Shown here one piece after another: positions 21,562 to 40,261 of a stretch of DNA of 64,000 nt. Origin of the DNA: Planctomycetota bacterium (GTDB lineage Bacteria > Planctomycetota > UBA11346); NCBI GenBank assembly GCA_031426335.1, contig JANPLC010000111.1, positions 2,384 through 66,383 of the forward strand, written 5' to 3'. The position numbers were made by a program, and so were the translations under genes. Position 1 is the stretch's first letter. Every line of letters begins with the position of its first letter. The notes below the pieces were generated by a model. The model saw only the letters and a list, made by a program, of their open reading frames with translations. It made no database searches and had not been told where the DNA came from.

Positions 21562-21990
21562 TCAGCAGCGCAGATTCAGGCTATGCCCGCGATTGCCTTC
21601 GGGGATCGAAGTCACATTGGCGTGTTCATCGGGAACCGCCTCCCAGCCTTCGCGCAGAGTGCGCATGATCGGCAACAGGGCCGCGAGTTGGGCCTCGTTC
21701 TTCTTCAGGCTGCCTTCGCTGATCTGATAGATGATGAAGGCGTAGAGGTCGCGCAGCTGGTGCGCCAATTCACCGCCGGCCTCGAAGTTGAGGGTCGCCA
21801 TGAGTTCGATGAAGATGTCGCGCGCTTTGCGGCATTGCACGATCGCTTCTTCGCCCTTGTTGGCCTTGATCGCCTCACGGGCGTTGCCGATGAAGCGTTC
21901 CGCGCCGAGGTACAATCGCACGATCAATTCGCGTTGCGACACCGTCTCGACTTCAGCGGAACGGTAAGCGGCCTGGGCGGTTTGGTTCAT
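21562..21990 (-). CDS. fliS: flagellin-specific export chaperone FliS
   Basis: 142 aa. AAYRSAEVETVSQRELIVRLYLGAERFI matches the FliS N-terminal consensus. Located downstream of fliD as in canonical flaG-fliD-fliS operons. Confidence 0.8.
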   Translation of the reverse strand: MNQTAQAAYRSAEVETVSQRELIVRLYLGAERFIGNAREAIKANKGEEAIVQCRKARDIFIELMATLNFEAGGELAHQLRDLYAFIIYQISEGSLKKNEAQLAALLPIMRTLREGWEAVPDEHANVTSIPEGNRGHSLNLRC

Positions 21991-22078: not shown

Positions 22079-24070
22079 TCACGACTCTCTCGGCGTCAAC
22101 GACTTCACGAAGTTTGTCATCGCCGTGCCCTGGGAATTGAACTGCGCGATCATGCGTTCCATCGACTGGAACTGGCGTTCGTAGCGTTCGCGGCGTTTGG
22201 TCAGCGTGAGGTCGGCTTTGGTGATCTGACTGGTCGCGTCGATGATGTTCTTGCTCAGGTTCTTGTCGATCGAGCTGATCGTGCCGATCGAGTTGTCGGT
22301 CAGACGGGTGAAACGTTCGCCGATCTGTTGGCCGATGCCCTTGTGGGCGGTGACGCTGGCGCCACTGAGCGCAGCCGTGGCGGTGATATTGAGCGACAAA
22401 CCTTCCGCGTCGCTGCCGACGGCACCACCGAGGAGCCGTCCGTTGCCAGCCCCGGCAACACCGTTGATGGTGCCGGCCACATCGATGCCAGTGACGTTCT
22501 GTGGGGTCAGCCCCAGCGCGGTGAGCGCGGTCGAGTCGCCACGGATCTGGATGTTCTGAGTGCGGCCATAACGCTCGCTGTGGATGTCCAGACGGTTGCT
22601 CGCGAGCGACACCACCAGCTTTTCATTGGTCGGCGACAACACCGCGTTGAACGAACTCTGCAGCTGAGTGGCCAGCTCCGCCCGGGTGTAGGTGCCGTTG
22701 GTCAGTGTCAGCGTCACGGCGCGGCCATTGACCGACATCCCCAGGGTGTTGTTGCTGTTGGTGATCACCGTCGACGCTGCCAGGGCCGTGCTGCTGAGCA
22801 CCGCCTGCACGGCCGGTTGGGTGATGTTGACGGAGAAAGGACCGGCGACCTTGGTCTTGTCGGTGAGGTTGCTGAACTGCACCGACTGCTCGGTCGAGGT
22901 GCCGGTGTTCATGAACAGCTTGCGCACGCCCTCTGAATTGTCGGCCAGTGCCTTGTCCAGCTTGGTCTGATCGACGACCAGCGTACCATCGGTGCGCTTG
23001 AGGGTGATGCCAATGGCAGCCAGACTGTTGAGCGACGACGGCAGACCCGACACGCTGCCGGTCAGCGCGCGGGTGATCTGGCCCATGCCGGCCACCAAGT
23101 TCGCCTGACTGATGAGGACGCCGGCGGTCTTGGTTGCCGGATCGAATCCAGCGTTGGCCTTGAGGTAGGTGGTCGCCGCATTGAAGCTCTCGACGAATTT
23201 CTTGATGCCGTCCTTCGCCGCGGTCGGATCAGCGGTGACGCCGATGGTGATGGCGTTGGCCACGGTGCGCGCTTCCAGCGTCACCCCGGGAACGATCTCG
23301 CTGAAGGTGTTGCTGGCCTGGGTCACGGTGATGGCGCCGCCACCGGAACCGATCCGCACCTCGGCATCACTCGCCGCGGCCAGGGTCGACATACCGGTGA
23401 AGAGCGAGGCCATGCCGCCAGTACCGCTCACCAGAATATCGTTGGCGGCGCCGGTCTTGCCGCCGTTGAGCACCAGACGGAAGGGCGATCCGCTGCCGTC
23501 GTTGATCACCGAAGCGGTGATGCCAGTACCAGCATTGTTGATCGCCGAGGCGACATCGGTGAGGCTGCCACCGGCGCTGAAGGTGAGCTGGGTCGCCGCG
23601 GCATCGCCGACCTGGAGCGACAGCGTGCCGCTAGCAAAGGCGGTTTCGGCCGACGCTTGGCCCACGGTCGCGAGTTGATGGGAACGCGCCACTTTCACCA
23701 CGTCGAGCGTATAGGAACCGGGCACAGCGCTGCTGGCGGTGGTAGTGATCGCCAGGGCGTCGGTGTTGCTACTGGTGGAGGTGCGGCTCTGAAAGGTCGA
23801 CGCGCGTTTGAGCGTGCCCAGGTCGAGCTGGGCCGACAACATCCGCGTATTGAAGGTGCGCACCGCTTCGCGGCGTGCCTCGTACAGCGCCTTGTTGCGT
23901 TCGAGCAGCCGGGTGGTCGCACGATCGGCATTGATGAAGGCGTCGATGATGTCCGACGATTGGATACCAGAAACCAGCCCATTCACCTTGGGACGGGTGC
24001 TGGAGCTGGTCGTGGACGAGTTGTTCGTGGACGAGTTGGTCGTCGAGCCGGTCGCTTCTACCATGGACAA
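22079..24070 (-). CDS. fliD: flagellar filament cap protein FliD (hook-associated protein 2)
   Basis: 663 aa. N-terminal GLVSGIQSSDIIDAFINADR and C-terminal AQFNSQGTAMTNFVKSL correspond to the conserved FliD termini. There is an S/T/N-rich low-complexity N-terminal tract. Confidence 0.85.
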   Translation of the reverse strand: MSMVEATGSTTNSSTNNSSTTSSSTRPKVNGLVSGIQSSDIIDAFINADRATTRLLERNKALYEARREAVRTFNTRMLSAQLDLGTLKRASTFQSRTSTSSNTDALAITTTASSAVPGSYTLDVVKVARSHQLATVGQASAETAFASGTLSLQVGDAAATQLTFSAGGSLTDVASAINNAGTGITASVINDGSGSPFRLVLNGGKTGAANDILVSGTGGMASLFTGMSTLAAASDAEVRIGSGGGAITVTQASNTFSEIVPGVTLEARTVANAITIGVTADPTAAKDGIKKFVESFNAATTYLKANAGFDPATKTAGVLISQANLVAGMGQITRALTGSVSGLPSSLNSLAAIGITLKRTDGTLVVDQTKLDKALADNSEGVRKLFMNTGTSTEQSVQFSNLTDKTKVAGPFSVNITQPAVQAVLSSTALAASTVITNSNNTLGMSVNGRAVTLTLTNGTYTRAELATQLQSSFNAVLSPTNEKLVVSLASNRLDIHSERYGRTQNIQIRGDSTALTALGLTPQNVTGIDVAGTINGVAGAGNGRLLGGAVGSDAEGLSLNITATAALSGASVTAHKGIGQQIGERFTRLTDNSIGTISSIDKNLSKNIIDATSQITKADLTLTKRRERYERQFQSMERMIAQFNSQGTAMTNFVKSLTPRES

Positions 24071-24107: not shown

Positions 24108-24473
24108 TTACGCGGTTTTGTCGATGAACATGCCGATGAAGTCCTGCAGGCGTGCGTGCAGTTCCATCACTTCCTTTGAGGGGATCTGTTTGATCACCTC
24201 GCCGGTCTGCTGGTCGGTGACGCGCATGAAGGCCTGGTCGCTGTCGTGGTCGATATCCATCGACAGGCGACGGGAACTGGCGGCCTCGACCACCTGCTTC
24301 AACTGCGCGGCGGCAGCATGCAGGTGGTCGGAACTCACTGGCAGCTGCCCATTGGCGGCGGCCTGGCCCTGTTGCGTCTGGGCGACCTGGACCTGCGCTT
24401 GACGGTCGGCCGTGTTGGCTGGCCGGATGTAGTCGCCCACTTGGGTGGCGATCTGGGCGTCGATGCGGCTCAT
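24108..24473 (-). CDS. flaG: flagellar protein FlaG
   Basis: C-terminal MDIDHDSDQAFMRVTDQQTGEVIKQIPSKEVMELHARLQDFIGMFIDK matches the FlaG family. Preferred start is MSRIDAQIA (ATG 24471-24473, minus strand). Located immediately upstream of fliD. Confidence 0.7.
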   Translation of the reverse strand: MSRIDAQIATQVGDYIRPANTADRQAQVQVAQTQQGQAAANGQLPVSSDHLHAAAAQLKQVVEAASSRRLSMDIDHDSDQAFMRVTDQQTGEVIKQIPSKEVMELHARLQDFIGMFIDKTA

Positions 24474-24863
24474 GGGCGACCTGCCTCCTTGGGGGCGTGG
24501 TACCCCCAACACGCAGCATCGGTGGGCTGGGCCTGGCGCTTGAGGGAAATCTGGCTTGGGCTTGCTGGCCGACTCCGCCACCGCCCAGATGATTAGCCAT
24601 AAAGATTTCTTTGATAGGCGGTTGTGTCATGTCCGTCGGTCCTCCCCCTGGGACTCAGAACGCAAACCTTTGGCCAATGGTTTCCGGCGTCCGCGAAATC
24701 GGGGGTTGCCGCGGTCCGCAGCCGGTTCGTCGCGGTTCGTCACCTAGCGGGATTTCCCTCAAGCGCCCAGAACCCCTGCCGTCACTGACCCCCAGACCGT
24801 CATATGCGGTTCGCGGTACGGATACCGCTCTCGGCTCCCAACCAACACCCCACGGAGGAAATC

Positions 24864-27344
24864 ATGGGCCTGCGCATCAATCACAATATCTCAGCAATCA
24901 ACGGGCATCGCCAGTTGATGAAAAACGAAAGCATGATGGCCAAGTCGCTCGAGCGCTTGTCCAGCGGCCTCAAAATCAACCGCGCTGCCGACGACGCCGC
25001 TGGACTCGTCATCAGCGAACAGATGCGTGCGCAGATCTCAGGTCTGAAGCAAGGTATCGATAACAGCGAGACCGCGATCTCGATGGTGCAGACCACCGAA
25101 GGTGCGCTCGACGAAGTGAACACGCTGCTGACCAAGGCACGTGAACTCGTCCTGCATGCCGCCAACGAAGGCGCCAACGACGTCAATCAGCTCACCGCTG
25201 ACCAGACTGAGCTCGACAACGTCATCCAGTCGATCACCCGCATCAGCGATGTGACCCAGTTCGGTACCAAGAAGCTGCTCGATGGTAACCTGAACGGTGC
25301 CACGAGTCTCGCCTCCTCCATCTCGCACGTCAAAGTTGGCAACCTGGCCAACAACCCCGCAATTAATGCTGGCCTGATGTCACTCAATGTGACGGCCGCG
25401 ACTAAGGAAGCGATTACCCTCAAGGGTGGTTCTTCGACCGACACCTACATCTTCAACGCGGCGGTCACCGGTGTGAACCTCGGTAGCGCCTCGGTGAACT
25501 CGGGCGTGTCGGTGTCGCTCACCCTTGGCAGCGATACGGTTGCGCTCGTCACCACCGGTACGATGACCGCATCAACCCTGGCTAGCGCGCTCGATACCCT
25601 GGCTAACCAGTACGGTTTCGATGTCGCCTCGGTCAGCGGTGAAATCAAGGTCACCCGCCAGAACTTCGGCTCCACGGACTTCGTGTCGAATATCAGCTTC
25701 TCACGTGCGGGAAGCGCGGCTGTCGCGGGTAGCGCTGAGAACGTCACGGCAACCCTCGAGGTCACCAGCCCGTCGACCAGCTCCGGCGCTGCCGCCGTAC
25801 TGTTCAACGAGTCCATCGGTGGCGTCTCCGGCATCCAGGAGACCAACACCCTGGCCAAGAGTGGCACCCGCTTCACCTACAACATCAGCACGGCCACCGG
25901 CGGGGCTTACTCCGCGACCGTGACCGGTGCGGCCAACGCCACCGTTGCCAGCATCTTGTCGGGCCTGCAGACCTCGATCCAGGGTCAGGCTGGTTTCTCT
26001 GGCGCTTCGTTGACCCTCGCGGGCAGCACCGGTGCCGGTGAGATCAAGTTCAATCTCGCCCGTGGCGACGACACGATCGCCACTGACTTCAACTTCTCGC
26101 TGGCGATCGACTTCGACAACTCTGCCGCCATCCAATCAGAAGTCGAAGTGCTGTCGCTGACGGGTGCGACCTTCAACGTCGGTACCGGCCCAACCTTCAA
26201 CGATGGCACCGGTGCTGTGGCTGGTTCAGCCATCGCCACGGGCACGGTCATGTCGTCCGGCAATGCCATCAACCTGACGGTCAACGGCCAAACGGTGACC
26301 TTTACCGCCGGTGCCGGCGGCCAGAGCATGACTGGTATCGCTGATGGCCTGGAAACTGCCGTGCAGGCTCTGGGAGGCGGCCTCTCAGGCGTCCAGGTCG
26401 AATACCTAGCGGCTGGTGTGAGCCTCACGGGACTCACCAACTACCAGGGTGCAACCGGCGCGGTCACACCCAGTGCGGGCTTCGTACTGTGGAATTCGGA
26501 CGGCACGAGCTTCTCAGTGTCGCTGACGGTCGACCAGACGCAGGGCACTGACGTGGCCATCTCGTCGGTCCAGACCCAGACTGGTGCGGAAGCGGGCGCC
26601 ACGCTCGACCTCACGACCACAGCTCAGGTAAGCAGCGGCAACACCGCCACCAGCGGTGCCGTATCGGGCACTGCGGTGGCCAGCACGACCAGCGGTTCGG
26701 TGGTCAGCAGTGGCCTCGATGCCACCGCGACCATGACCTCGTCCAACGGGGTGGTCCTGAACCTGAAGCAGTCGGCGATCAATGCCGACGGCACCGTCAG
26801 CATGACGCTGACCACGGGCATGAACGACATCGGTTACAAGGATTTCAAGGCCGAGCTCTCCTCGACCTTGCTGTCCGCCGGTGGTGCGACCAACTTCACC
26901 CTGACCCAGGGTGCGGTGTTCCAGGTCGGTGCGAACGCCCTGCAGCAAGTGGCCTTCACGGTCGACGACATCTCGTCCGATGAACTCGGTCGTGGTGCCA
27001 GCTCGTCCTTGGCGAGCCTGGAAGATATGCTCAGCACCAAGGAAGGTGCTCTGCTCAATGGTCTCAGCACGGAAGCTCTGGCGGTCATCGACTCGGCCAT
27101 CGATCAGGTCACCAACCTGCGCGGGCGCCTTGGCGCCTTCCAGGCCAATGCCCTGGAAAGTGGTCTGAACAGCCTGCGGGTGTCCTATGAGAACCTGACG
27201 GCTGCCGAGTCGACCATCCGCGACGTCGACTTCGCCGAGGAATCGGCGAACTTCACCCGGAATCAGATCCTGGTGCAGGCGTCGACCTCGATGCTGGCGC
27301 AAGCCAATCAGATGCCTCAGAACGTGCTGAAGCTTCTCGGCTGA
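24864..27344 (+). CDS. fliC: flagellin, giant variant (~826 aa) with a very large Thr/Ser/Gly/Ala-rich central hypervariable domain
   Basis: Conserved D0/D1 N-terminus MGLRINHNISAINGHRQL...RAADDAAGLVISEQMRAQISGL and C-terminus LRGRLGAFQANALESGLNSLRVSYENLTAAESTIRDVDFAEESANFTRNQILVQASTSMLAQANQMPQNVLKLL. GGAGGA RBS at 24855-24860. Followed by a rho-independent terminator. Confidence 0.9.
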   Translation: MGLRINHNISAINGHRQLMKNESMMAKSLERLSSGLKINRAADDAAGLVISEQMRAQISGLKQGIDNSETAISMVQTTEGALDEVNTLLTKARELVLHAANEGANDVNQLTADQTELDNVIQSITRISDVTQFGTKKLLDGNLNGATSLASSISHVKVGNLANNPAINAGLMSLNVTAATKEAITLKGGSSTDTYIFNAAVTGVNLGSASVNSGVSVSLTLGSDTVALVTTGTMTASTLASALDTLANQYGFDVASVSGEIKVTRQNFGSTDFVSNISFSRAGSAAVAGSAENVTATLEVTSPSTSSGAAAVLFNESIGGVSGIQETNTLAKSGTRFTYNISTATGGAYSATVTGAANATVASILSGLQTSIQGQAGFSGASLTLAGSTGAGEIKFNLARGDDTIATDFNFSLAIDFDNSAAIQSEVEVLSLTGATFNVGTGPTFNDGTGAVAGSAIATGTVMSSGNAINLTVNGQTVTFTAGAGGQSMTGIADGLETAVQALGGGLSGVQVEYLAAGVSLTGLTNYQGATGAVTPSAGFVLWNSDGTSFSVSLTVDQTQGTDVAISSVQTQTGAEAGATLDLTTTAQVSSGNTATSGAVSGTAVASTTSGSVVSSGLDATATMTSSNGVVLNLKQSAINADGTVSMTLTTGMNDIGYKDFKAELSSTLLSAGGATNFTLTQGAVFQVGANALQQVAFTVDDISSDELGRGASSSLASLEDMLSTKEGALLNGLSTEALAVIDSAIDQVTNLRGRLGAFQANALESGLNSLRVSYENLTAAESTIRDVDFAEESANFTRNQILVQASTSMLAQANQMPQNVLKLLG

Positions 27345-27375
27345 TCACGGACGACAATCAGGTCACGAATGACCA

Positions 27376-27409
27376 CCCCCGGTGCTTTTGGCACCGGGGG
27401 TTTTGTCGT
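27376..27409 (+). terminator. rho-independent terminator downstream of the first flagellin gene
   Basis: CCCCCGGTGC-TTTT-GCACCGGGGG perfect 10-bp GC stem followed by TTTTGTCGTTTAT, 32 nt after the stop. Confidence 0.65.
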
Positions 27410-27754
27410 TTATGGGCCGCGAGCCGTGCGGCGTGCGGCGTGCGGCGTTTTGCGAGATCGTCGCGTGCGGTGTTTTCCCATGCGGATGACGGGGCCGAAC
27501 AGCGGTTCGCGGCGTGAGCCGCGAGAACCGGGTGGTCATCCGGCGTTTGCTCGAGTGCTCTGCGGACCTCGCCACCATCGCCGCAAAGCCTTGTGAAAAT
27601 TGCAGCTGGATGAACCGAGTGGCGTGCGGTCGGTCGTCAACGCCGCACGTCGCACCCCGCACTCCGCACCGTGGCAAGCCCTTTTGGCACGCCGCGAGCG
27701 TTGGTGCTCCCAAGGCTCTTCACCGAGCTGGAGTTCCCAACACGCGAGGTTCCC

Positions 27755-30238
27755 ATGTCCCTGCGCATCAATCACAACATCTCGGCCATCAATGGCCATA
27801 ATATGATGTTACGTAATGACGCCGCGCTGTCGAAGTCGCTTGAGCGACTGTCCAGCGGCATGCGCATCAACCGTGCGGCGGATGACGCCGCCGGCCTGGT
27901 GATCAGCGAGCAAATGCGCGCGCAGATCGCCGGCCTGGGACAAGCGATCGACAACAGCGAAACCGCGGTGTCCTTCGTGCAGACCACGGAAGGTGCACTC
28001 GACGAAATCAACTCACTGCTGATCAAGGCGCGCGAACTCGCCCTGCACGCGGGCAACACCGGCGTCAACGACGAGAGCCAGCTCTACGCCGACCAAACCG
28101 AACTCGACAACCTCATCGAGTCGATCACGCGCATCAGCACCAACACCCAGTTCGGCACCAAACGCATCCTCGATGGTGGCCTGAGTGGCGCGAGCAACTT
28201 CGGCACCGGTCTGGATCGCGTGCGCGTGGGCAACCTCGCCAACAATCCTGCGATCGACATCGGTCCGGTCACGCTCCAGATCAATCCCGGCGCCAGCGAG
28301 GCGATGACCCTGATCGGCTCCAACGCCACCGACAACTACGTCTTCAGCGGCGCCGTCACTGGCGTCACGCTGGGCACCAGCCGCGTGAACGCGGGCGTGT
28401 CGGTGACGCTGTCGATCGACGATCAAGTGGTCGCCTACGTGACGACTGGCTTGCAGGACGCCACCACCGTGGCGGCACGCCTCGATGCCTTGGCTCAGCC
28501 ACTGGGTTTCAGCGTCGCGGCCAATGCCAACGGTGAAATGGACGTGACGCGCCTCGCCGTCGGTTCGCAAGACTTCACGGCACGAGTGGCCTTTACCCGC
28601 GGGGCGATCCAGCAGGTGGCTGGCCAGAACGAAACCGTCACCGCCACGATCGAAGTGACGACGCCATCCACGGCGGCAGACGCTGCGGGCGCGATGTTCA
28701 GCGGTATTACCAGTCTTTCCGAGGTGCAGACCTCCACCACGGTCAGCAGTGGCACGACCTTCAGCTACGTGCTTCAGAGCGCTACTGGTGGGTCGTTCAG
28801 CGGTGCGGTGGTGGTGGCTTCGGGAACCGCCTTATCGTCGGTGCTCACCAGTCTTGAGGCCGCCATTCAAGCGCACACGACGTTCAGCGGTGCGGCGCTG
28901 ACCTACGACGGCAGCACCAGCAGCGACGGCCTGCGCTTCAGCCTGGCTCGTGGCTTCGACGACATCGCCACCGATTTCAACTTCTCGCTTACTGTCGACT
29001 ACCAGAACAACGCCGTCACCAATTCGCAGGTCAACGTCGTCGACATCGCGGCAGCAACCTTCGCCACCGGTAGCGACGCGACGTTCCTGACCGGTGCCGG
29101 CGGTACGGAAGTCCAAGGTGCGGCCATGGTCGGCACCACCTACCTGCAGAGCGGCAACGCGATCAACCTGACCATCGGCGGCAACACCCTGGTCTTCACC
29201 GGTGCTCGCGACCTCGACACCATCGCCAGTGCGATGCAGACGCAGTTCAACGCCCTGGGCGGAGACTTCGCCAACGTACGCGTGGCCTTCGCTACCGGTG
29301 CCGTGGACCTGAGCGGCTTTGCCGGCATGGCCAACCAGACTGGCGCCACCGCCGGTGGGTTCCGCGGTTTTGTGGTCTTCACCACTGACGGTTCGGACCT
29401 GGCGGTTTCGCTCGCGGTCGACCAGTCGCAGGGCACGGACGTCCTGCTGGGTGATGCCGAGCTGGCAGCTGGTGCGAATGCCGGCTCGACACTCGACTTG
29501 ACCACCACCGCGCAGGTGCGCGATGACAATCAGGTGGCCCAGGCAGCGCATGTGGCCTCGACCGTCGCGAGTGTCAGCGGCAACGTGGTGGTCACCAGCG
29601 GTGTTGATGTCACCGCGACGATGACCTCCAGCAATGGCGTGATCTTGGACCTGGTCAGCACCAGCAACCTGGTCAGCAGCGGCTCTACCCTGGTGCTCAC
29701 TCCGGCAATGGAGGCACTCGGCTACAACGGCTTCAGCGCTGACATCGACCAAACCCTCACCACGGCCGGTGGCGTGACGACCTTTGACCTCGACGAGGGC
29801 GCGGTGTTCCAGGTCGGCCCGAACGCCGGTCAACGCGTCGGGGTGGTGATCGACAGCGTCGCGGCCACCGAACTCGGTCGTAATGTGGAGGACGGCGGGC
29901 CGTTGCGCAGCCTCAACGATCTCCACACCGATCAGCAGGGTGCGTTGTTCAACGGCCTGACGGTCGAAGCGCTGGCGGTGATTGACTCGACCATCAACGA
30001 GGTCACCACCTTACGCGGCCTGCTCGGTGCGCTCCAATCCAACACGCTGGAAAGCGGCTTGAACAGCTTGCGTACCTCGTTCGAGAATCTGACCTCTGCC
30101 GAATCGACCATCCGCGATGTCGACTTCGCTGAGGAGTCCTCGAACTTCACGCGCAACCAGATCCTGGTGCAATCCGCCACCGCGATGTTGGCCCAGGCCA
30201 ACCAGTTGCCGCAGAACGTGCTCAAGCTCCTGCAGTAA
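27755..30238 (+). CDS. fliC: flagellin, second giant paralogue (~827 aa) with a divergent central domain
   Basis: N-terminus MSLRINHNISAINGHNMMLRND...RAADDAAGLVISEQMRAQIAGL. C-terminus LRGLLGALQSNTLESGLNSLRTSFENLTSAESTIRDVDFAEESSNFTRNQILVQSATAMLAQANQLPQNVLKLLQ. The central ~550 aa differs from the first copy but shares short motifs (NLANNPAI, GAVFQVG). Confidence 0.9.
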   Translation: MSLRINHNISAINGHNMMLRNDAALSKSLERLSSGMRINRAADDAAGLVISEQMRAQIAGLGQAIDNSETAVSFVQTTEGALDEINSLLIKARELALHAGNTGVNDESQLYADQTELDNLIESITRISTNTQFGTKRILDGGLSGASNFGTGLDRVRVGNLANNPAIDIGPVTLQINPGASEAMTLIGSNATDNYVFSGAVTGVTLGTSRVNAGVSVTLSIDDQVVAYVTTGLQDATTVAARLDALAQPLGFSVAANANGEMDVTRLAVGSQDFTARVAFTRGAIQQVAGQNETVTATIEVTTPSTAADAAGAMFSGITSLSEVQTSTTVSSGTTFSYVLQSATGGSFSGAVVVASGTALSSVLTSLEAAIQAHTTFSGAALTYDGSTSSDGLRFSLARGFDDIATDFNFSLTVDYQNNAVTNSQVNVVDIAAATFATGSDATFLTGAGGTEVQGAAMVGTTYLQSGNAINLTIGGNTLVFTGARDLDTIASAMQTQFNALGGDFANVRVAFATGAVDLSGFAGMANQTGATAGGFRGFVVFTTDGSDLAVSLAVDQSQGTDVLLGDAELAAGANAGSTLDLTTTAQVRDDNQVAQAAHVASTVASVSGNVVVTSGVDVTATMTSSNGVILDLVSTSNLVSSGSTLVLTPAMEALGYNGFSADIDQTLTTAGGVTTFDLDEGAVFQVGPNAGQRVGVVIDSVAATELGRNVEDGGPLRSLNDLHTDQQGALFNGLTVEALAVIDSTINEVTTLRGLLGALQSNTLESGLNSLRTSFENLTSAESTIRDVDFAEESSNFTRNQILVQSATAMLAQANQLPQNVLKLLQ

Positions 30239-30312: not shown

Positions 30313-32187
30313 ATGACATCTGTGCAGACCCCGCTTGCGGGCGGAGTACCCGCCCTGTCCAGTAACGGCAGAACTGCGAATCAAGGGTCGCGCGCCATGA
30401 ACGACATGCCGTCCGCACAACGGTATCAGCAAGCCCGGGTCATGTTGCAGCAACAGGCCCCGGTGATCGCCCAGGCACTACCGGAACAGTGGCCAGCGAG
30501 CGTCCCCACGTTGCCTCAGCGACCCACACTCGACGCGGCCCGGTTGGCCACCAGTACGCTCAACGAAGGCCTGTTGCTCATCGGTCTTGGCGACGGCTCA
30601 ATCCTGCAATTCCTGCGCGGCGATGCGAACGGCCGCTCCAAGCTGGTGCATGTCCTGGTGCTCATGCCGGAGATCCCGCATTTCGCCCACCTGCTCGGGA
30701 TCGTCGATCTGCCGCTGCTGTTCAAGGAATTGCACCTGAGCCTGCACCTGGTGTTGAACGCCAACGAACTGGGCTCGGTCATCAGCCGGGCCTTCACCAA
30801 CCACGGCCAGATCGCCCGTCTGGCGGGGACCCGCACGGTCGACACCCATGCGTTGGCGCCCAACGCCGAGCGCATGCGCGACGAGATTCACCCAGCGATC
30901 GGCAAGTTGCTGCTGGAGCGGTACGACTGCCTGGGCAACGACGTCTACGACACTTTTCTGGGGGCCAAACACGCGCTGATGCATGGTCGCAAGATCATCA
31001 CCCAGCCGCGTTCGAGCGACTACGCCTACCGCTATGCCGGCAAGTCCGCCCTGTGTATCGCCAGTGGTCCGAGCGTCAGCGCGCACTACGAGCGCATCCG
31101 TGAGATCCAACACGAACACGTGATCATCTGTGCCGACTCCATCCTTGGCGGTCTGTTGAAAAACGGCATTGAGCCGGACTTCGTCTGCATGGTCGAACGT
31201 CCAGATGTCATGCACGCTTTGATCGACGGACACGCCGAACAATGCCGCACGGTGATTTTCGCTTTGCCAGTGGTGCATCCCACCAGCGTCATTCCGTTCG
31301 GCGAACGGGTGGCCTGGTTCTGGAACGCCGACGATCTCTATCCCTGGCTCGACGCGAACGAGCCACGTTTGTCGAGCGGACGTTCGGCCGGCACCATCAC
31401 CGCGTCGGTCGCGGGCCTGCTGGGGATCAAGGAGGCTTGGCTGCTCGGCCATGATCTGGCCTACCGCAACGACGGACAGAGCCATGGCGTGGGCACCGCA
31501 CCGTTGGCAGTGGAATCGCAAGCCGAATGGGCGAAGGACCTCTCGCGCACCTCTGCTAATTACCACAAACGTCTGATCGACACGCCGAAGAACGGCGGAG
31601 GCTACCTCCAGACCACCGGCGTGTGGGAAATCTTCCGCTCGGACATCGAAGGCATCATCCAGTCGTATCAGGGCCGCACGACCTTCATCAACGTCAATGC
31701 TGCGGATGAGGTCGGCGCGGTCATCAAGGGCACCACGGCCGGCGGCTTGCCGTTGGCGACGGGCGTAGCGCTGGAGAAATCCCATCCCCAACGTGCCTGG
31801 AATGAAACGCAGTGGGAAACCTACCGCTCGCGTGGCCGGCAACTGCTCGCCGACTTCGCTACCGTCCAGGAGCGGTTCAAGGAATACGATCTGGAGTTAG
31901 CGACCTGGCGGCCGTTGTCACATGATCGCGAAGCGGTCGAGTCGATGGGCAAGAAGATCGACCTTGGCACCATCGTCAGCCCGGAAAATGCCGCGTGGTT
32001 CACCTACGTCTTCCGCGCAGCGTTGCGCAACCTGATGGTCAAACTGCACCACAACACCTTCGTGCGCACCATGGCGGAACGGAACTGGAACCAGGTGCAG
32101 ATCATGCGTCTCTACCTGCACTCCGTGCCCAGCCTTATCGAGCGCCTGCGTCCCGAATTGGAACTGGCGCTCAAGGAGTTCACATGA
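30313..32187 (+). CDS. motility-associated factor (Maf, DUF115/MptE-like) family protein, putative flagellin nonulosonic-acid glycosyltransferase
   Basis: 624 aa. Central region YRYAGKSALCIASGPSVSAHYERIREIQHEHVIICADSILGGLLKNGIEPDFVCMVER resembles the DUF115 core of Maf proteins. Position immediately downstream of the flagellin genes. Start is uncertain (30313 or 30397). Confidence 0.6.
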   Translation: MTSVQTPLAGGVPALSSNGRTANQGSRAMNDMPSAQRYQQARVMLQQQAPVIAQALPEQWPASVPTLPQRPTLDAARLATSTLNEGLLLIGLGDGSILQFLRGDANGRSKLVHVLVLMPEIPHFAHLLGIVDLPLLFKELHLSLHLVLNANELGSVISRAFTNHGQIARLAGTRTVDTHALAPNAERMRDEIHPAIGKLLLERYDCLGNDVYDTFLGAKHALMHGRKIITQPRSSDYAYRYAGKSALCIASGPSVSAHYERIREIQHEHVIICADSILGGLLKNGIEPDFVCMVERPDVMHALIDGHAEQCRTVIFALPVVHPTSVIPFGERVAWFWNADDLYPWLDANEPRLSSGRSAGTITASVAGLLGIKEAWLLGHDLAYRNDGQSHGVGTAPLAVESQAEWAKDLSRTSANYHKRLIDTPKNGGGYLQTTGVWEIFRSDIEGIIQSYQGRTTFINVNAADEVGAVIKGTTAGGLPLATGVALEKSHPQRAWNETQWETYRSRGRQLLADFATVQERFKEYDLELATWRPLSHDREAVESMGKKIDLGTIVSPENAAWFTYVFRAALRNLMVKLHHNTFVRTMAERNWNQVQIMRLYLHSVPSLIERLRPELELALKEFT

Positions 32188-33314
32188 GCGACGAAGCCCT
32201 GGATCGCTTCCGCGCCTTCCTTGCCACGCGAAGCACGACGGGCGCCACCGAGCGCGACCTGCTGCTCCATGAGATGGGCGCGACCATCAATCGTCATCGA
32301 CTGACCGGACGCGAAGAAGGCATGCATGCCTTCAACACCACGCAACTGTGCGAGTTGGTGCTCGGTCAACGAGCGTGGTCGAGAGATCAACCGTTCGTCA
32401 CTGGCTTGATGCTCAGCGCCCTGGTTGATGGCGAATTCGAGATCTACGACAAAGCCAAGAGCGAAGGACTATTGCCGACGACCTGGACTTGGAGCGCTTG
32501 GGCGGAGGGCTTCGCTGGCGAGGAGGGTGATCTGCGGCGTCTTATGGGTTCCATCCCGGCGGTACGGGAACGTTGTGGTGCCGCGTGCTTGGCAGTACGC
32601 GGGAATCCAGCGGTGGTGGGCAGCGCGCTGCTGGGCGACTTCTGCAACGTTCACATGGCCAAGGTCTACCATCGACTGCTGCGCGTCGGCCTCGCCGGGC
32701 CCAGGGGTTCGGAGATTGCTGATCATGAACTCAGCCGTCTGGCAGGCTGCCTGGAAGTATTGTTCGCCGAGGACACTGACGCGACACTCGCTGCGTTGGT
32801 GCAGTCCAGCAGCATCGATCATCCGGAGATCCTCGTCGCGGCCTTCAAAGATGCCGCCGGCGACCTGACCCGTACCGCCATTGCCCAGCGTCACCTGGAG
32901 CGGAACCGTCCGCTCGAAGCGCTTTCCCTGGTGCAAGACCTGCGCTTCCTCTCTCCAGCTTACGACCAAGCGATCCTCATCGCCGCACTCGCGGCACTTG
33001 AATGCGGCAAGTTTGAAAAGGCCGAGTTCTATAGCCGCAGCATCGCGAACGAGGATACCCGCCTCAAGATCGTCACGCGCATTGCCCAGGGCAATGGCGA
33101 TACCGGGGTCGAACTGGATGCGCTGACCCGTCTCTATGAGCGCAGTCCGCAGGATGCCCAGATCTTCGTGATGCTGATCAACGTGCTGCGACGCATCGGA
33201 CAGACCGCGTTGGCGTTCGCACTATGTGCCGAGGCGCAGGAACGTTTTCACAACGACCCCATGATTGCCCGCATCATTCGTCCGATCCTGGCGCAGGGCC
33301 CCGGGGGCACCTGA
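32184..33314 (+). CDS. hypothetical protein with TPR-like C-terminal helices, translationally coupled to maf
   Basis: ATGA overlap at 32184-32187 with the maf stop. 377 aa. I recognise no family. Confidence 0.5.
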   Translation: MSDEALDRFRAFLATRSTTGATERDLLLHEMGATINRHRLTGREEGMHAFNTTQLCELVLGQRAWSRDQPFVTGLMLSALVDGEFEIYDKAKSEGLLPTTWTWSAWAEGFAGEEGDLRRLMGSIPAVRERCGAACLAVRGNPAVVGSALLGDFCNVHMAKVYHRLLRVGLAGPRGSEIADHELSRLAGCLEVLFAEDTDATLAALVQSSSIDHPEILVAAFKDAAGDLTRTAIAQRHLERNRPLEALSLVQDLRFLSPAYDQAILIAALAALECGKFEKAEFYSRSIANEDTRLKIVTRIAQGNGDTGVELDALTRLYERSPQDAQIFVMLINVLRRIGQTALAFALCAEAQERFHNDPMIARIIRPILAQGPGGT

Positions 33315-33326: not shown

Positions 33327-34373
33327 TCAGTGCGCTGATTGGTGCGCGCTGGCGTATTCTTCGGGCAGTCCGATGTCGCTCCAGGGTTCCTGCATGTGGT
33401 AGGCGCCGACGCGCTTGCCACTCTGCAAGCAGCCGTTGAGCAGCTCAGTGATGGGATACATACGCCCCTTGGGGATGAGCGGGATCAACTCGGGATTCAG
33501 CACGTAGATGCCGGCGTTGATGCGGTAATTGAGCTTTGGTTTCTCGACCAACTTGACGATGCGCGACTCTTTCACCTCGGCCACGCCGAAGGGGACCTGC
33601 ACCGCGTGTTCACGCAGGCCCATGGTCGCGGCGTACTCCCCACTGCGATGGAAGGCCAACAGCCGCCCGACATGGATGCGGGTCAATAGGTCGCCGTTCA
33701 TCACCAGCAGCGGATGAGTTGGGACCTCCGGCACCAAGGAGATCGGACCTCCCGTGCCGAGCGGAGTATCTTCGCGCTCATGCAGGTAATCGATGCGGCA
33801 CTGGAAGTCCGAGCCATCGCCGAAATGGTCCTGGATCATGCGTGCGAGGTAGTTCACCGAGATGAAGATGCGGCGCACGCCGTGGCCCACCAGCAGTCGT
33901 ACGATATGTTCAAGGATCGGCCGATCGCCGATCGGCAGCATGGGTTTGGGAATGCCCTTGGTCAGTTCGCCCAGGCGTTCGCCTTTGCCGCCGGCCATGA
34001 CCACTGCCCACGAATCGCAGCGCGAGCCCATCAGCGCCATTTTCAGCGTGTGCAGATCGCGCAGGACCCCTTTGTCATCGACCACCGGCAAACAGGCGAA
34101 ACCGTTGGCGACCATGAACTGCAACGCATCGGTGCGCGACAGGTCCGGACTGACGGTGGTGAATTTCGGGTTGGCAATGGCGCTGATGCGTTCAGACAGT
34201 GGAACACCGCGCAGGATTGCCCGGCGGATGTCGCCATCGGTGGCCATCGCGATCAGCTTCTGCCCAGGACCGCAGACCATCGCCACTGACAGACCGGAAG
34301 AATCGATCACCCGCATGGCGTCCAGGATAGAGGCCTCTGGCGCGACGATGAGGTCATGGAGATCAGTGGCCAT
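33327..34373 (-). CDS. tandem-CBS-domain sugar-phosphate nucleotidyltransferase (PtmE-like)
   Basis: Two N-terminal CBS domains, then the nucleotidyltransferase signature VVMAGGKGERLGELTKGIPKPMLPIG. This architecture is known from nonulosonate (legionaminic acid) precursor pathways. Confidence 0.75.
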   Translation of the reverse strand: MATDLHDLIVAPEASILDAMRVIDSSGLSVAMVCGPGQKLIAMATDGDIRRAILRGVPLSERISAIANPKFTTVSPDLSRTDALQFMVANGFACLPVVDDKGVLRDLHTLKMALMGSRCDSWAVVMAGGKGERLGELTKGIPKPMLPIGDRPILEHIVRLLVGHGVRRIFISVNYLARMIQDHFGDGSDFQCRIDYLHEREDTPLGTGGPISLVPEVPTHPLLVMNGDLLTRIHVGRLLAFHRSGEYAATMGLREHAVQVPFGVAEVKESRIVKLVEKPKLNYRINAGIYVLNPELIPLIPKGRMYPITELLNGCLQSGKRVGAYHMQEPWSDIGLPEEYASAHQSAH

Positions 34374-34376
34374 GGC

Positions 34377-35072
34377 TCAGGCTCCCGGCTTGCGACAGAC
34401 CACTACCCACAACTCGATCAGGTGCAGTTGATTGCCCATGGTGTAGGAATTACGCTCGATGGAGTGGTCGGTGAAACCGGCGTAGACGCGGTCCACATCA
34501 GCGTGGCTGAGAAAGTGGATGTAGCCCACGTTGCCCAGCGGCCCTTCAGAAATGTTGCGCATCGAGCCCGGATCCTCGCCCGGCTGCCCCAGACCGTACC
34601 CCCAGGTACGCTCGGTGAAGTTCAGCGAGATGAACATCCCACCGGGCTTCAGCACTCGTTTCACTTCGGCCGCACAGGAGAGCATCGAACGCATGGGATT
34701 CGCGCAGAGCGAAGCGTTGTCGAGCACCGCGTCAAAGCTCGCATCGTCCCACGGTAAGCGCTGGGTGAAGTCGCCGACCTGGAGATCGGCGGTGAGGTTC
34801 TCGCTGGTCAGACGCGCGCGGTTCTGCGCGATACCACTCGGCGAGCCGTCGATGGCCGCGACGCTGAAACCTTCGCGGGCGAGGAACCAGGTGTTGGCGC
34901 CAGGTCCACTGCCAAGATCGAGCACGCGCACCGCTTTGCGGTCGGGCACGCGGCTGAACTTGCGCATGATCTCACGAATCACCGGCTCGGGCGGATACTT
35001 GCCCCAGGCGCGGGAGGCGAAGATCGCCTCCCAGGTGGGATCCCAACTGGCGCTCGCGTTCGTGGTGTTCAT
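34377..35072 (-). CDS. class I SAM-dependent methyltransferase
   Basis: Motif I VLDLGSGPGANTWFLAREG and motif II/post-I region. Embedded in the sugar operon. Confidence 0.7.
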   Translation of the reverse strand: MNTTNASASWDPTWEAIFASRAWGKYPPEPVIREIMRKFSRVPDRKAVRVLDLGSGPGANTWFLAREGFSVAAIDGSPSGIAQNRARLTSENLTADLQVGDFTQRLPWDDASFDAVLDNASLCANPMRSMLSCAAEVKRVLKPGGMFISLNFTERTWGYGLGQPGEDPGSMRNISEGPLGNVGYIHFLSHADVDRVYAGFTDHSIERNSYTMGNQLHLIELWVVVCRKPGA

Positions 35073-36127
35073 GTGCGGTTCTCCATGGCGATGGGTTGGC
35101 GGTAGGCCTGGAACCAGGCTGGCGTGCGGCCACTGCGGCTGCGCCAGTCGTTGATCAGGCGTTCATGTCGTGCGGCATCACATATCAGACCCGCAACGCG
35201 AAAATGTGAGCGGCCGCGACCGATGCGGCGTTTGAACTGCAGCAGGCTGTCATCGTCTGCGACGCTCATGCCGCCACCGAGGTGGATGCCGGCCAGGCCT
35301 CGCGTGGCGGCATGATCGGCCATCGCCTCGAACAGCAGATTGCCGGCAGCATTGTGCACGTCGCCCTGACGAGCGCTAAGGTGGTAATGGCCATACCGCG
35401 GCCCACACATCAGCAGTGCCTGTGCCACCGCCACGCCGCCAGCATCGATCACCGACACCAGCGCGAGGTCGTCGCCCAATCCGGCCGCGAGTCTGGTGTA
35501 GTAAGTGTCGTTGAAGCGGTACGCCGATCCGGCGGACAAGCGCTCCATGGTCTGATCGTAGAGCGCGCGGAAGGACCGCAGCACTTCGCTGGTTGGTGCG
35601 ATGCTGATCGTCGAGTTGAAACCCAAGCGGCGGGCGCGGTTCACCTGCGAGCGATGATTAGCGCAGTCGCCACCAGCAAACGCCTGCGTTCGTCCATCGG
35701 TGAGCGGGATCCAGGCGGTAGGATGGGGTGCGCCGATCAGGAGATGAGCTAAGGCCGCATAGTCGGCGAACGGATTCAACCGCAGGAAGAGGTTGACGAT
35801 GCCGCGCGCTGCGAGCGTGTCGGCAAGGAGCGGCCAGCATGTGGCGACTTCACCACGCGTCAGCAGGCCGGGATAACCATAGGGGCTCTCAGCATCGTAA
35901 CCCTCGCCCTCGGGCAGTCGCCGTGGCAGCAAGGGGACCGCCATTTCTCCGGCGGGGGTGCGCACGTGCACCAACAGGGCGTCATCACCTGCCGCCGCGT
36001 GAACGTAGCCATGCTGCGCGTACACATCCACGCCGTCGAAGCTGCTGAGGACGCCATTCCAGCGTTCGCTGCCCGCCGAGATCGTGGTGATCTCCACCTG
36101 GCTCACGTCTTCACCAAGAGGTTCCAC
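35069..36127 (-). CDS. FemAB-like / GNAT-fold acyltransferase domain protein
   Basis: 352 aa. Its stop overlaps the methyltransferase start (35069-35072). Weak resemblance to Acetyltransf_6/FemAB-type N-acyltransferases. It may substitute for the N-acetyltransferase step of the pathway. The 5' end overlaps neuC by 25 nt, so the true start may be internal. Confidence 0.45.
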   Translation of the reverse strand: MEPLGEDVSQVEITTISAGSERWNGVLSSFDGVDVYAQHGYVHAAAGDDALLVHVRTPAGEMAVPLLPRRLPEGEGYDAESPYGYPGLLTRGEVATCWPLLADTLAARGIVNLFLRLNPFADYAALAHLLIGAPHPTAWIPLTDGRTQAFAGGDCANHRSQVNRARRLGFNSTISIAPTSEVLRSFRALYDQTMERLSAGSAYRFNDTYYTRLAAGLGDDLALVSVIDAGGVAVAQALLMCGPRYGHYHLSARQGDVHNAAGNLLFEAMADHAATRGLAGIHLGGGMSVADDDSLLQFKRRIGRGRSHFRVAGLICDAARHERLINDWRSRSGRTPAWFQAYRQPIAMENRT

Positions 36128-37227
36128 GCGGGATCGCGCGAGCGCAGGTTGGCCGCCAGATGGTCGAGGATGCGCGGGATCGCATGGCCGTCGCCATACG
36201 GATTATCGAATTGTCGCCCCGCATGCCGAAGAGCGTGTGCCTGCGTGATGGCGTTGCGCAACGAGTCGACCGTCGGCGTACGGCAATCGATCACGCTCGT
36301 GCCCATCTTCCGGCCAAGTTGACGGGTCCCGAGGTTCACGGTGGGTGTGCCGAGGCTCGGTGCCTCGATCAATCCGGCGCTCGAATTGCCGATCATCACG
36401 CCACAGAATGCAATCAGGCTGCGGAAGGCGCGACTGCCCAGCGACGCGAGCAGATGGCAGCGCGGCAGGCGACGGGCGAGCTCCGACCAGCAAGCGTGAA
36501 TGCGCTCGCTGCCCGGATCGCCGTTGGGACTGGAGAAAAAGAGGTGACCTGGCCACTGCGCAGCAACGGCGGCGATGGCCCCGAGGATGGTTTCCAGCTC
36601 GGCCGGATCGCGCGTGATCGGATGCACGGCGACACACAGATCGCCAACTCCTGGCTTCGCACCGGTCAGTTGTTCCAACTCGCCAGCAGACAACCGTGGT
36701 TCGGTCAGGAGCGTGTCGATGCCGGGATCGCCGGTGGCCAGCACGCGCCGGGGTTCTTCCTTCAGGTCGTCGACCAGTCGGTTGCCGGCACCTTCATGCG
36801 TCGGGTAGTGGAGATGAGCGAGGCGCGTCACCGCGTCACGGACTACATCATCAATCGCACCCTGGGTTTTTTCACCACCCGAGCAGTGCGCCAACGCCAA
36901 GTTCGCTACGGTGGCCACGTGAGCGACCTCCAGCAGTTCGTGGCGATCACCGATCACCAGCACGGCCTCGATGGCATGCTCTTCCAGCAGCGCGAGCAAA
37001 GCTCGCTGATGCACGTGTCCGACCGAGCTGTCGGAGGCCGGCAGTCGTCGACTGTCGAGTCCGAGGAGTTCGTCAGCGTTCGGTGTTCCGGCAGGAAGGT
37101 GCTGGCCGGTGATGACCGTGACGCAGGCGAAGCGAGCATCCGCCTGGGCCGCACGCGCGAGTGGCGCGACGAAGCCAAAATCGCTGCGCGAGGTGCTGAC
37201 CATGACGATGCGGATGGGCTCGCTCAT
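36103..37227 (-). CDS. neuC: UDP-N-acetylglucosamine 2-epimerase (hydrolysing), NeuC/LegG-like
   Basis: 374 aa. N-terminus IRIVMVSTSRSDFG and the GT-B epimerase fold motifs. The 4-nt overlap with the upstream neuA-neuB fusion gene suggests translational coupling. Confidence 0.75.
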   Translation of the reverse strand: MSEPIRIVMVSTSRSDFGFVAPLARAAQADARFACVTVITGQHLPAGTPNADELLGLDSRRLPASDSSVGHVHQRALLALLEEHAIEAVLVIGDRHELLEVAHVATVANLALAHCSGGEKTQGAIDDVVRDAVTRLAHLHYPTHEGAGNRLVDDLKEEPRRVLATGDPGIDTLLTEPRLSAGELEQLTGAKPGVGDLCVAVHPITRDPAELETILGAIAAVAAQWPGHLFFSSPNGDPGSERIHACWSELARRLPRCHLLASLGSRAFRSLIAFCGVMIGNSSAGLIEAPSLGTPTVNLGTRQLGRKMGTSVIDCRTPTVDSLRNAITQAHALRHAGRQFDNPYGDGHAIPRILDHLAANLRSRDPAWNLLVKT

Positions 37228-38966: not shown

Positions 38967-40261
38967 ATCTTCCCGTCAAGGCTCTTGCCGGTTTCGCGGT
39001 GGATGAAGCCGGGGACGACGGCAGCGAGGGCCAGCGCCAACTCGGCCTTGCTCGGGATGTCGTTGGCGGAGCGGCAGCGCACGGCGCGATAAATGGTCTG
39101 GAGCAGGTGGCGGAGCGGCGCGAGGTCCACGGCGTGCGGCGCGGGGATGGTCGCGAGGTGGGTAAAGCCGTTCGCATGCGCGCTTTCCTGCTCACCGCGT
39201 GCGACAAATTCTTCGATCTCTTTCTCGCCACTGGTGTCAGAGGTGGTGACCAGCACGGGATAGCGTTTCTGCGCCAGCTCGCCGGCGACGCTGGCCAAGG
39301 CCTTGGCGGGATCGCGGTAATGTGACGGTGTCAGTCCCAGGTCGCGCAGGGTCGCATCGGCGATGTCGATGAACGAGGCCATGTCCTTGGCCGGATCCAA
39401 ACGTGGGATCACCACGTGGCTGTGTGGCGTGGCAGCGCCGGCGAGCAGACAGAGCTGACCGGCTTCACGTGGCGTGACGAGGTAGCGGCGGATGTCCCCA
39501 GGAGCAGCCAGCGGCTGTTGTTTCTCGATGCGCTGCAAGAAGGCCCACGGCAGGCTGCCATCGCTGAAGGCGACGTTGGCGAAACGCGCGGTGGTGACGT
39601 GAGTCAGGCGTGGCAAAACTTGCGCCGGTTCCTGCGGCCACGCGATCGCTTCATCGTTCTGCGTGTGCGCCCACAACAGGATCTCCATCGCGCGCTTGGA
39701 CGCGCCCATGATCCCGACCGGGTTGGCGGCCTTGTCGGTGGAGACGAAGAAAACCCGCGCGTGCGCGTTGCGCTGACGCCGCCGCAAGCAGCACAGGAAA
39801 AAATGCGCCTTGAGCAGATTCACTTCCAACAGGCGCACGGTCGAGAAATGATCGCGCTCCGAGCGCACGTGCTTCAGCGCAGCGAACGAGAACACCACGT
39901 CGAACGGCGCCTGTTCATCGAGAAAGATTCCGGTGAGCGGCGTGCCGTAGTCGAGTGGCTGAACGATCAACTCACCGGTGAAGGGCGTGGGCAGATTGCG
40001 GATCGAGCGCACCAACTCGGCCAGGTTGTTCTCATTCGGATCGAGCACCGCCACCGCCGCGGGCTTGGTGACCTTCAGCATCTCGATCAACGTCGCTGAG
40101 CCGATCGACCCGGCAGCGCCGACCAGCAGCACACGTTTGCCGTCGAGCAGGGATTTCAGCTCGCCGGTGGCCTTGGCCACATCGCTGGCGAACAGGCTGT
40201 CATGCCGGCCAGTGACCGCCTGGGCGATGCGTTCGATGCGGGGCGTCAGGCAGAGGGGCAC
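38963..40261 (-). CDS. NAD-dependent nucleotide-sugar 4,6-dehydratase/epimerase (CapD/PglF/PseB/LegB-like), first gene of the nonulosonate operon
   Basis: Rossmann motif VLLVGAAGSIGSA and the short-chain dehydratase fold. Its stop overlaps the neuA-neuB start (38963-38966). Confidence 0.7.
   Translation of the reverse strand: MPLCLTPRIERIAQAVTGRHDSLFASDVAKATGELKSLLDGKRVLLVGAAGSIGSATLIEMLKVTKPAAVAVLDPNENNLAELVRSIRNLPTPFTGELIVQPLDYGTPLTGIFLDEQAPFDVVFSFAALKHVRSERDHFSTVRLLEVNLLKAHFFLCCLRRRQRNAHARVFFVSTDKAANPVGIMGASKRAMEILLWAHTQNDEAIAWPQEPAQVLPRLTHVTTARFANVAFSDGSLPWAFLQRIEKQQPLAAPGDIRRYLVTPREAGQLCLLAGAATPHSHVVIPRLDPAKDMASFIDIADATLRDLGLTPSHYRDPAKALASVAGELAQKRYPVLVTTSDTSGEKEIEEFVARGEQESAHANGFTHLATIPAPHAVDLAPLRHLLQTIYRAVRCRSANDIPSKAELALALAAVVPGFIHRETGKSLDGKM

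Follow-up and report, generated by a model that had tools for sequence, protein, structure and literature searches.

A 64,000-nt stretch of DNA from a Planctomycetota bacterium (GTDB lineage UBA11346; GenBank assembly GCA_031426335.1, contig JANPLC010000111.1, positions 2,384 to 66,383 of the forward strand; guanine-plus-cytosine content ~63%), called the window here, carries two large flagellin genes in tandem, fla1 and fla2, between a divergent flaG-fliD-fliS operon and a maf gene followed by sugar-biosynthesis genes (Table 1). The open reading frames (ORFs) span 24804-27344 and 27671-30238, and both starts were trimmed to the conserved M(G/S)LRINHN, that is to MGLRINHN at 24864 in fla1 and MSLRINHN at 27755 in fla2. 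That both genes encode structural-type flagellins with conserved D0/D1 domains and a large outer region is supported because: (i), the Pfam domains Flagellin_N (PF00669; E 8.8e-36 and 1e-35; 123 bits against a 26.6-bit cut-off) and Flagellin_C (PF00700; E 1.7e-26 and 6.4e-25, above cut-off) were found in both proteins, in agreement with the canonical D0/D1 ends that a first-pass annotation of the same DNA had assigned to them, (ii) phmmer aligned Bacillus subtilis Hag over residues 3-146 and 682-825 of both proteins and matched solved flagellins at E 1e-62, (iii) the top NCBIfam models were flagellins (249 bits) while FlgL models scored 84 bits at most, which identifies the products as flagellins and not FlgL and, (iv) the invariant residues of the family are kept in both copies. 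Both frames are intact, and the frameshift artefacts against which that annotation had hedged can be set aside because an independent Logan assembly (L081; 4 differences in 16,727 nt) encodes both proteins without change and because 25 full-length relatives from other metagenomes fall in the same length class (824-861 aa). The lengths first read from the sequence, about 826 and 827 aa, therefore stand, but the label "giant" does not: Thomson et al. (2018) reserve it for flagellins of more than 1000 aa, and both proteins belong to their "large" class of more than 800 aa (PMC6248924).

The two proteins are collinear end to end with 54% identity (BLASTP). Identity reaches 75% in the N-terminal core and 80% in the C-terminal core, stands at 44.8% over residues 146-735 and does not drop below 33% in any 50-aa window. 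By this alignment, fla1 and fla2 are full-length paralogues, centres included, and the earlier view that nothing but short motifs links the centres has to be withdrawn. The central size estimate of ~550 aa was sound, since the part outside D0/D1 measures ~535-590 aa (residues ~146-735), the true outer region spanning ~160-680. The centres had also been called extremely rich in Ser/Thr, which is overstated: in an ad hoc set of 57 further flagellins, none shorter than 400 aa, that chanced to lie in the retrieved loci, the median Ser plus Thr content is 19.8% and the highest 26%, which places fla1 (26.9%) at the top of the sample and leaves fla2 (21.5%) unremarkable. In the outer region, 47 alignment columns are at least 80% Ser/Thr. 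The lysine content of the two proteins also differs: fla2 has 4 Lys in all and none in its ~590-aa centre, and its orthologue in the related locus L082 likewise has none in the outer region, while fla1 has 18 in all, 8 of them in the outer region, where other family members have up to 30.

The outer region of fla1 contains three tandem homologous domains of ~120 aa (R1, R2 and R3), each a strand-strand-helix-strand-strand unit, whose helices lie at residues 236-250, 361-373 and 489-502 of the AlphaFold2 model. Their homology was detected by hhalign (R1 with R3, E 1.9e-7; R2 with R3, E 8.8e-7; R1 with R2, E 8e-4) and the domain plan is the same in both flagellins. No DNA tandem repeats were found inside either gene, and the triplication must thus be old. 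AlphaFold2 models the outer region as folded and beta-rich, with predicted local distance difference test scores mostly of 80-92. At E values up to 10, the centres gave only noise against Pfam, with no peptidase or other enzyme domain, and the outer region had no match among Protein Data Bank (PDB) sequences; neither protein carries in its outer region the enzyme domain that defines a flagellinolysin. The best PDB fold match of the full-length model in Foldseek was the Geovibrio thiophilus flagellin (9au6, E 1.5e-19) and the top matches were all flagellar filaments; the centre-only model matched nothing below E 1e-3. A hook-associated origin has been proposed for the Geovibrio outer domains (PMC11532411), and two weak signals suggest a FliD-like or hook-associated origin for the repeat domain of this family as well: the full-length model matched FliD D2-D3 (5h5w) at E 5e-3 in Foldseek, and hhalign aligned R3 with residues ~439-476 of the cognate FliD, marginally (49% probability, E 1.8e-4).

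As far as sequence searches reach, this outer region is restricted to a small clade of ~830-aa metagenomic flagellins. With the centre as query, a word-indexed search of 5.8 billion proteins returned 26, all flagellins of equal length class, and an exhaustive search of 1.84 billion cluster representatives with an outer-region hidden Markov model (an 11-member profile of residues 160-678) returned 20, all of them same-architecture flagellins or fragments. Scans of genome contigs were less productive: single-protein patterns found no relative in a first scan, and in a scan with the family alignment matches to D0/D1 crowded out the rest, the only genome match spanning the outer region being a Planctomycetota metagenome-assembled genome (L001, residues 360-825, 42%).

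The two genes are preceded by different candidate signals. We compared the leaders of the first flagellin gene in six loci, whose sequences have otherwise diverged. Boxes CTCAAG and GCCGTCA are invariant at about -105 in five of the six, with diverged flanks, and the L085 leader departs from them (GTCCGACA). In fla1, the motif may be read as TCAA-N15-GCCGTCAC at -105, with the spacing of the sigma-28 consensus TAAA-N15-GCCGATAA. Downstream, at -45 to -53, a hairpin (GCGGUA-CGGA-UACCGC, 24813-24828, in the window; GCGGTACGGA(A/T)ACCGC in the family) is identical in all six leaders bar one loop-closing A/T, is present in both the minimum-free-energy and the centroid folds, and occurs once in the window, where 0.1 would be expected at up to two mismatches. 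The ribosome-binding site reported for the first gene, GGAGGA, was found at 24854-24859, 4 nt before the ATG, within a CCA[A/C]GGA[G/A]GA element kept in 6/6 leaders. One GGA in a hairpin loop and another over the Shine-Dalgarno sequence is the layout of CsrA-type leaders, and the fla1 leader has both, each conserved in all six. In metagenome contigs, the 16-nt hairpin had at least 120 matches and no flagellin gene followed any of those listed, a scan which is uninformative because a 16-mer is expected hundreds of times by chance. At its other end, fla1 is followed by the strong intrinsic terminator noted at first reading (a 12-bp stem with 9 GC pairs, then a T-run), and in the two-gene loci (L082, L083, L085 and L089) the first gene always has an equivalent GC hairpin and T-run behind it, built on another stem sequence.

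The upstream region of fla2 is of another kind. TTGGCA[C/T]-N5-nnGCGT, a sigma-54-like motif, lies at -70 to -125 from six flagellin genes that are either single or not the first of their locus, in the window, L082, L083, L088 (two genes) and L091, and the L088 copies are canonical (TGGCAT-N5-TTGC). With a terminator behind fla1, a 410-nt intergenic region and a promoter motif of its own, fla2 probably forms a unit separate from fla1, as had been proposed from its own upstream region. Inside the same interval, heptad repeats face an inverted partner, 92% complementary and 189 nt downstream, which ends ~15 nt before the sigma-54-like promoter of fla2. The arrangement recurs in L082 with a different copy number, and the heptads might be binding sites for an activator (a bacterial enhancer-binding protein). 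No terminator was found in the 74 nt between fla2 and maf.

The neighbouring genes include the components of a Maf island: maf adjoins a flagellin gene, and a synthase, a hydrolysing 2-epimerase and a CMP (cytidine monophosphate)-activating enzyme are present. The adjacency of a nonulosonate pathway and a Maf homologue had been pointed out from the sequence, and profile searches did find the MptE-like gene and the NeuC/NeuB-type genes. The Maf protein has in addition a partial match, below cut-off, to an NCBIfam PseD domain, and is followed in every family locus by a gene of 370-376 aa with no Pfam family on record. The pathway genes comprise a CBS-nucleotidyltransferase, a methyltransferase, a GNAT protein, a NeuC-type hydrolysing 2-epimerase (NeuC_NnaA, 249.6 bits against a 235.9 cut-off), a cytidylyltransferase-NeuB fusion (NeuB_NnaB, 352.9 bits, below its 399.65 cut-off; PseI, 218 bits) and a 4,6-dehydratase-like protein. 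On these profile scores the sugar set is of the neuraminic/legionaminic acid (Neu/Leg) type rather than of the pseudaminic acid (Pse) type. The fusion, by which a single protein would carry out the two final reactions of CMP-nonulosonate synthesis, is also found in L083.

On the opposite side, flaG, fliD and fliS are divergently oriented; the flaG start was taken from homologous gene calls of 121-122 aa. A sigma-28-like motif, CTCAAG-N15-GCCGATAC or a near variant, lies at about -70 from flaG in five related loci, its -35 box being the CTCAAG of fla1, here paired with the canonical GCCGATAC -10 box. Farther upstream on the same minus strand, ~190 nt from flaG, stands a sigma-54-like element, after which GGAGGA-N8-ATG occurs at 24628-24645 (-) with an ORF out of frame with flaG. 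This element may reflect either tandem promoters of the flaG operon or an unannotated short ORF. The class-III aminotransferase gene beside fliS was considered as a sugar-pathway enzyme and discarded, being BioA (above the TIGR00508 cut-off).

Table 1. Flagellar and glycosylation features of the window (positions in the 64,000-nt stretch).
Feature	Position	Strand	Description
fliS, flagellin chaperone	21562..21990	-	142 aa; Pfam FliS E 1e-29; same place in related loci
fliD, filament cap	22079..24064	-	~661 aa; Pfam FliD_N and FliD_C; L081 gene call mapped
flaG	24108..24473	-	121 aa, start MSRIDAQ; Pfam FlaG E 6e-17
sigma-28-like promoter of flaG-fliD-fliS	24517..24543	-	TCAAG-N15-ACCGATG; motif and conservation
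sigma-54-like -24/-12 element	24660..24677	-	TTGGCC-N6-TTGCGT; window, L082, L083, L087, L089
sigma-28-like promoter of fla1	24759..24784	+	TCAAG-N14-GCCGTCA
fla1 leader hairpin, candidate CsrA site 1	24813..24828	+	GCGGUACGGAUACCGC, loop (A)CGGA(U)
Shine-Dalgarno sequence, candidate CsrA site 2	24852..24859	+	ACGGAGGA
fla1	24864..27344	+	flagellin, 826 aa, 83.1 kDa, pI 4.4
three tandem homologous outer domains of fla1	25476..26558	+	residues ~205-305, 325-435, 455-565
intrinsic terminator after fla1	27375..27411	+	stem 27375-27401 plus TTTGTCGTTT
heptad repeats and inverted partner	27425..27670		CGTGCGG x3.4 at 27425-27448; partner 27639-27670
sigma-54-like promoter of fla2	27685..27701	+	TGGCAC-N5-GAGCGT; GG-N10-GC
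fla2	27755..30238	+	flagellin, 827 aa, 84.4 kDa, pI 4.2
maf, putative flagellin nonulosonate transferase	30313..32187	+	624 aa; MptE-like (PF01973) E 7e-26
weakly tetratricopeptide repeat (TPR)-like protein	32184..33314	+	376 aa; TPR_19 and TPR_16 below cut-off; start overlaps maf stop by 4 nt
nonulosonate (Neu/Leg-type) pathway	33327..40261	-	Pfam and NCBIfam
cytidylyltransferase-NeuB fusion	37224-38966	-	580 aa; CTP_transf_3, NeuB-type synthase (E 3.5e-74) and SAF

Eight related loci keep the fliS-fliD-flaG / fla / maf layout. They have one to three flagellin genes, and maf and the ~372-aa gene invariably come after the last of these; L087 and L091 have a single copy and L088 has three. In a neighbour-joining tree, fla2 groups with the second genes of L082, L083 and L089 in a clade separate from the fla1 clade, which contains the first genes, indicating that the duplication predates these lineages. 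The two complete L088 copies have canonical sigma-54 motifs, yet are nested in the fla1 clade.

Between the window and its close relative L082, the two flagellins have diverged very unequally. The fla2 proteins are 98.7% identical (dN, the nonsynonymous divergence, 0.008; ratio to the synonymous divergence, dN/dS, 0.03) while fla1 and its L082 counterpart (10001-12484) are 84% identical overall and only 52-80% identical over residues ~300-600, where dN is 0.29 and dS 0.99, as against a dS of 0.06-0.19 at the fla1 termini. The genes for Maf, the TPR-like protein, the methyltransferase and the GNAT protein have diverged too (dS 1.1-1.7), the dS of background genes lying between 0.25 and 0.9. Of the dN values measured in the neighbourhood, that of residues ~300-600 of fla1 is the highest and that of fla2, located between fla1 and the diverged maf genes, the lowest. 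Recombination into fla1 was considered as the explanation and not retained: neighbouring non-flagellar genes also have dS values of 0.5-0.9, so that it may just as well be the flagellar block, with its low dS, that is out of the ordinary. What is robust is the contrast between fla1 and fla2, for which we claim no particular recombination history.

Taken together, we propose that fla1 and fla2 are a major/minor pair in the manner of FlaA and FlaB, co-assembling in one glycosylated, thick filament, with two promoter classes and a CsrA-type leader on fla1, a reading to which we give a probability of about 0.6. The two-GGA layout is that of the B. subtilis hag and C. jejuni flaA leaders, where CsrA, with FliW as its antagonist, ties the translation of flagellin to its export. 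By analogy, fla1 may be the late, major flagellin, read from its sigma-28-type promoter, ending at its own terminator and gated by CsrA through the two GGA sites. The sigma-54-type promoter would drive fla2, and probably maf and the TPR-like gene along with it, and the fla2 protein may be made early as a hook-proximal or minor component, like FlaB of Campylobacter and Helicobacter. Both proteins would polymerise through their D0/D1 core, with the ~520-aa beta-rich outer region decorating the filament surface and making the filament thicker than the 24 nm of the Salmonella type. Maf would probably O-glycosylate both before export, at Ser/Thr residues of their outer domains, with a CMP-activated Neu/Leg-type nonulosonate supplied by the adjacent pathway. 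O-glycosylated, thicker-than-usual filaments are a reasonable prediction: flagellins of more than 1000 aa form filaments of at least 30 nm (PMC6248924), and the 793-aa Geovibrio flagellin forms a 24-nm filament (PMC11532411).

A number of observations weigh against this proposal. As to the promoters, the loose sigma-28 pattern is common by chance (6 found, 3.3 expected in the 64-kb window), and the sigma-54 pattern taken alone is found twice where 0.8 is expected, so that the assignment draws all its support from conservation of position; the -12 element of the window is moreover GAGC where the consensus has TTGC. Promoter class and tree agree imperfectly, as sigma-54-like motifs precede genes of the fla1 clade in L088, the single gene of L091 has such a motif, and the second gene of L089 has neither. 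The stem of the leader hairpin, being invariant, lends no covariation support, and no Rfam family matched it, a scan of 24000-30500 being empty. As to the regulators, no csrA turned up in the window or the family loci when B. subtilis and E. coli CsrA served as tblastn queries (which did retrieve csrA beside flagellin genes in ~25 unrelated loci), no fliW was seen in the window or related loci, and no sigma-factor domain was found in the window ORFs that were profiled, where no search was aimed at rpoN or fliA; the regulators, sigma factors included, are thus an assumption. In favour of CsrA control, CsrA and FliW are encoded in phyla that include the Planctomycetes (PMC4682653). The structure model, finally, has an unreliable inter-domain geometry (predicted template modelling score 0.36-0.39).

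The most serious competitor is a redundant co-polymer, in which the two flagellins are mixed along the whole filament without spatial order and the promoters only tune their amounts, as has been proposed for several bacteria with multiple flagellins. Copy number does vary from one to three, and single-gene loci carry either promoter type, which suggests that one type, whichever it is, suffices for a filament; however, the very unequal divergence of the copies and their old, retained split in two clades argue for distinct roles, and we regard simple redundancy as possible but unlikely. A more elaborate scheme seems to us slightly more doubtful still: labour would be divided between fla2, an invariant sigma-54 scaffold, and fla1, a sigma-28 flagellin whose outermost repeat domains (residues ~300-600) would be recombined between strains along with maf, the TPR-like partner gene and the genes for glycan tailoring, the outer domains being a previously unclassified fold derived from a triplicated FliD-like module. 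If it held, free-living bacteria would have in this locus a flagellar "glyco-serotype" cassette that varies between strains, perhaps under pressure from phages or grazers.

It had also been suggested that the cell alternates between the two copies for antigenic or structural variation, the model for which is the phase variation of fliC and fljB in Salmonella. The separate transcription units with different upstream regions, the outer regions differing at 55% of positions and the pair of 24-nt inverted repeats in the intergenic region would all suit such a switch. Its usual hardware was not found, be it an invertible promoter with a recombinase or homopolymer tracts: between 21 and 41 kb there is neither an invertible segment nor a G/C homopolymer of at least 7 nt, profiling of ORFs around the flagellar genes turned up no recombinase domain, and both inverted repeats precede the fla2 promoter motif instead of flanking it. 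In addition, the promoter motifs are those of successive flagellar classes, which in known cases means sequential co-assembly, and fla2 is near-invariant between strains, unlike what is expected of a partner in antigenic variation. Of the two flagellins, only fla1 appears to vary between strains, in its centre, and we consider the suggested alternation improbable. Even less credit can be given to the idea that one copy is no filament subunit but either a duplicate in decay or a flagellin-like protein with a secreted or regulatory role. Flagellin paralogues of the latter kind exist, such as the non-structural FlaC of C. jejuni (PMC5466977) and a regulatory flagellin paralogue in Caulobacter (PMC7591256), but both window proteins keep full-length Flagellin_N and Flagellin_C domains, the invariant residues and the domain plan, and both genes are intact, with dN/dS values of 0.03 and 0.25.

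The proposed co-assembling pair can be set beside several known systems. The C. jejuni flagellin genes are in tandem, as in the window, and much less diverged than the window pair (54% identical). There, flaA has a sigma-28 promoter and two ANGGA sites and flaB a sigma-54 promoter, glycosylation with Pse/Leg sugars depends on Maf, and in both C. jejuni and H. pylori FlaA and FlaB are built into one filament (PMC4894983). The window resembles these systems, as far as motifs go, in having two paralogues, one with a sigma-28-type promoter and two-GGA leader and one of sigma-54 type, as well as maf and nonulosonate genes nearby and a sigma-28-type flaG. It differs in phylum, in an outer region about twice as long and without detectable sequence similarity, in a sugar pathway of Neu/Leg and not of Pse type, with a NeuC-type epimerase, and in that the regulators were not seen. 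The Geovibrio thiophilus flagellin (9au6; PMC11532411) is of similar size and has a multi-domain, beta-rich outer region with an acidic surface, derived in part from domain duplication and related to hook-associated and FliD folds, and several similar-sized flagellin genes stand close together there too; however, the window outer region has no sequence match to it, 9au6 is not among the top 50 matches of the centre-only model, and a glycosylation island is present here. The large and giant flagellins of Oceanospirillales with their tandem "DE" regions also have an enlarged outer region made of tandem lineage-specific domains and a predicted thick filament, but their repeat domain belongs to another family and those species have a single flagellin; giant flagellins have been listed for phyla that include the Planctomycetes (PMC6248924). 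Finally, as in the Maf-1 and Maf-2-GlfM systems (bioRxiv 10.1101/2023.12.03.569772), a Maf-type transferase lies beside the flagellins, which in the window are its putative substrates, with a cis-encoded partner always after maf. Going by published descriptions, the 376-aa, weakly TPR-like putative partner of the window appears distinct from GlfM, a four-helix bundle, and from Maf-1, where the TPR domain lies inside Maf itself.

Each trait of the locus is well documented elsewhere, be it the large lineage-specific outer domains, the presence of several flagellin genes or the glycosylation island next to them, and the locus thus adds a member and not a principle: what is new is a clade-restricted member of the large multi-domain flagellins, multi-flagellin filaments and Maf islands. 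The pairing of a putative sigma-28 flagellin with a CsrA-type leader and a putative sigma-54 flagellin would nevertheless be a conserved example beyond Proteobacteria and Firmicutes, and would support this regulatory logic being old and widespread. The three repeats also form a sequence-orphan outer-domain family, with ~20 clusters in 1.84 billion representative proteins, and the invariant fla2 set against the variable fla1 centre offers a testable case of specialisation between flagellins that may co-assemble.

Other genes of the window and of the related loci call for brief mention. Directly past the sugar pathway, at 41081-49586 (+), lies a MoxR AAA+ / DUF58 / BatA-VWA / VWA / DUF4175 operon, a Bat-like aerotolerance cluster. 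A dipeptidyl peptidase IV (DPP-IV) gene precedes the cupredoxin/DUF7133 pair in the window (14002-18858) and follows it in L082 (1-3777), and a related locus carries PSCyt/PSD-domain genes. These last genes, the Bat-like operon and the DUF7133 gene, like the Planctomycetota match L001, fit a planctomycete host. At 53908-63486 (+), a 3192-aa ORF combines a PQQ-type beta-propeller, CBM9 and a C-terminal PA14 domain and, on this domain content, probably encodes a giant surface or secreted carbohydrate-binding protein.

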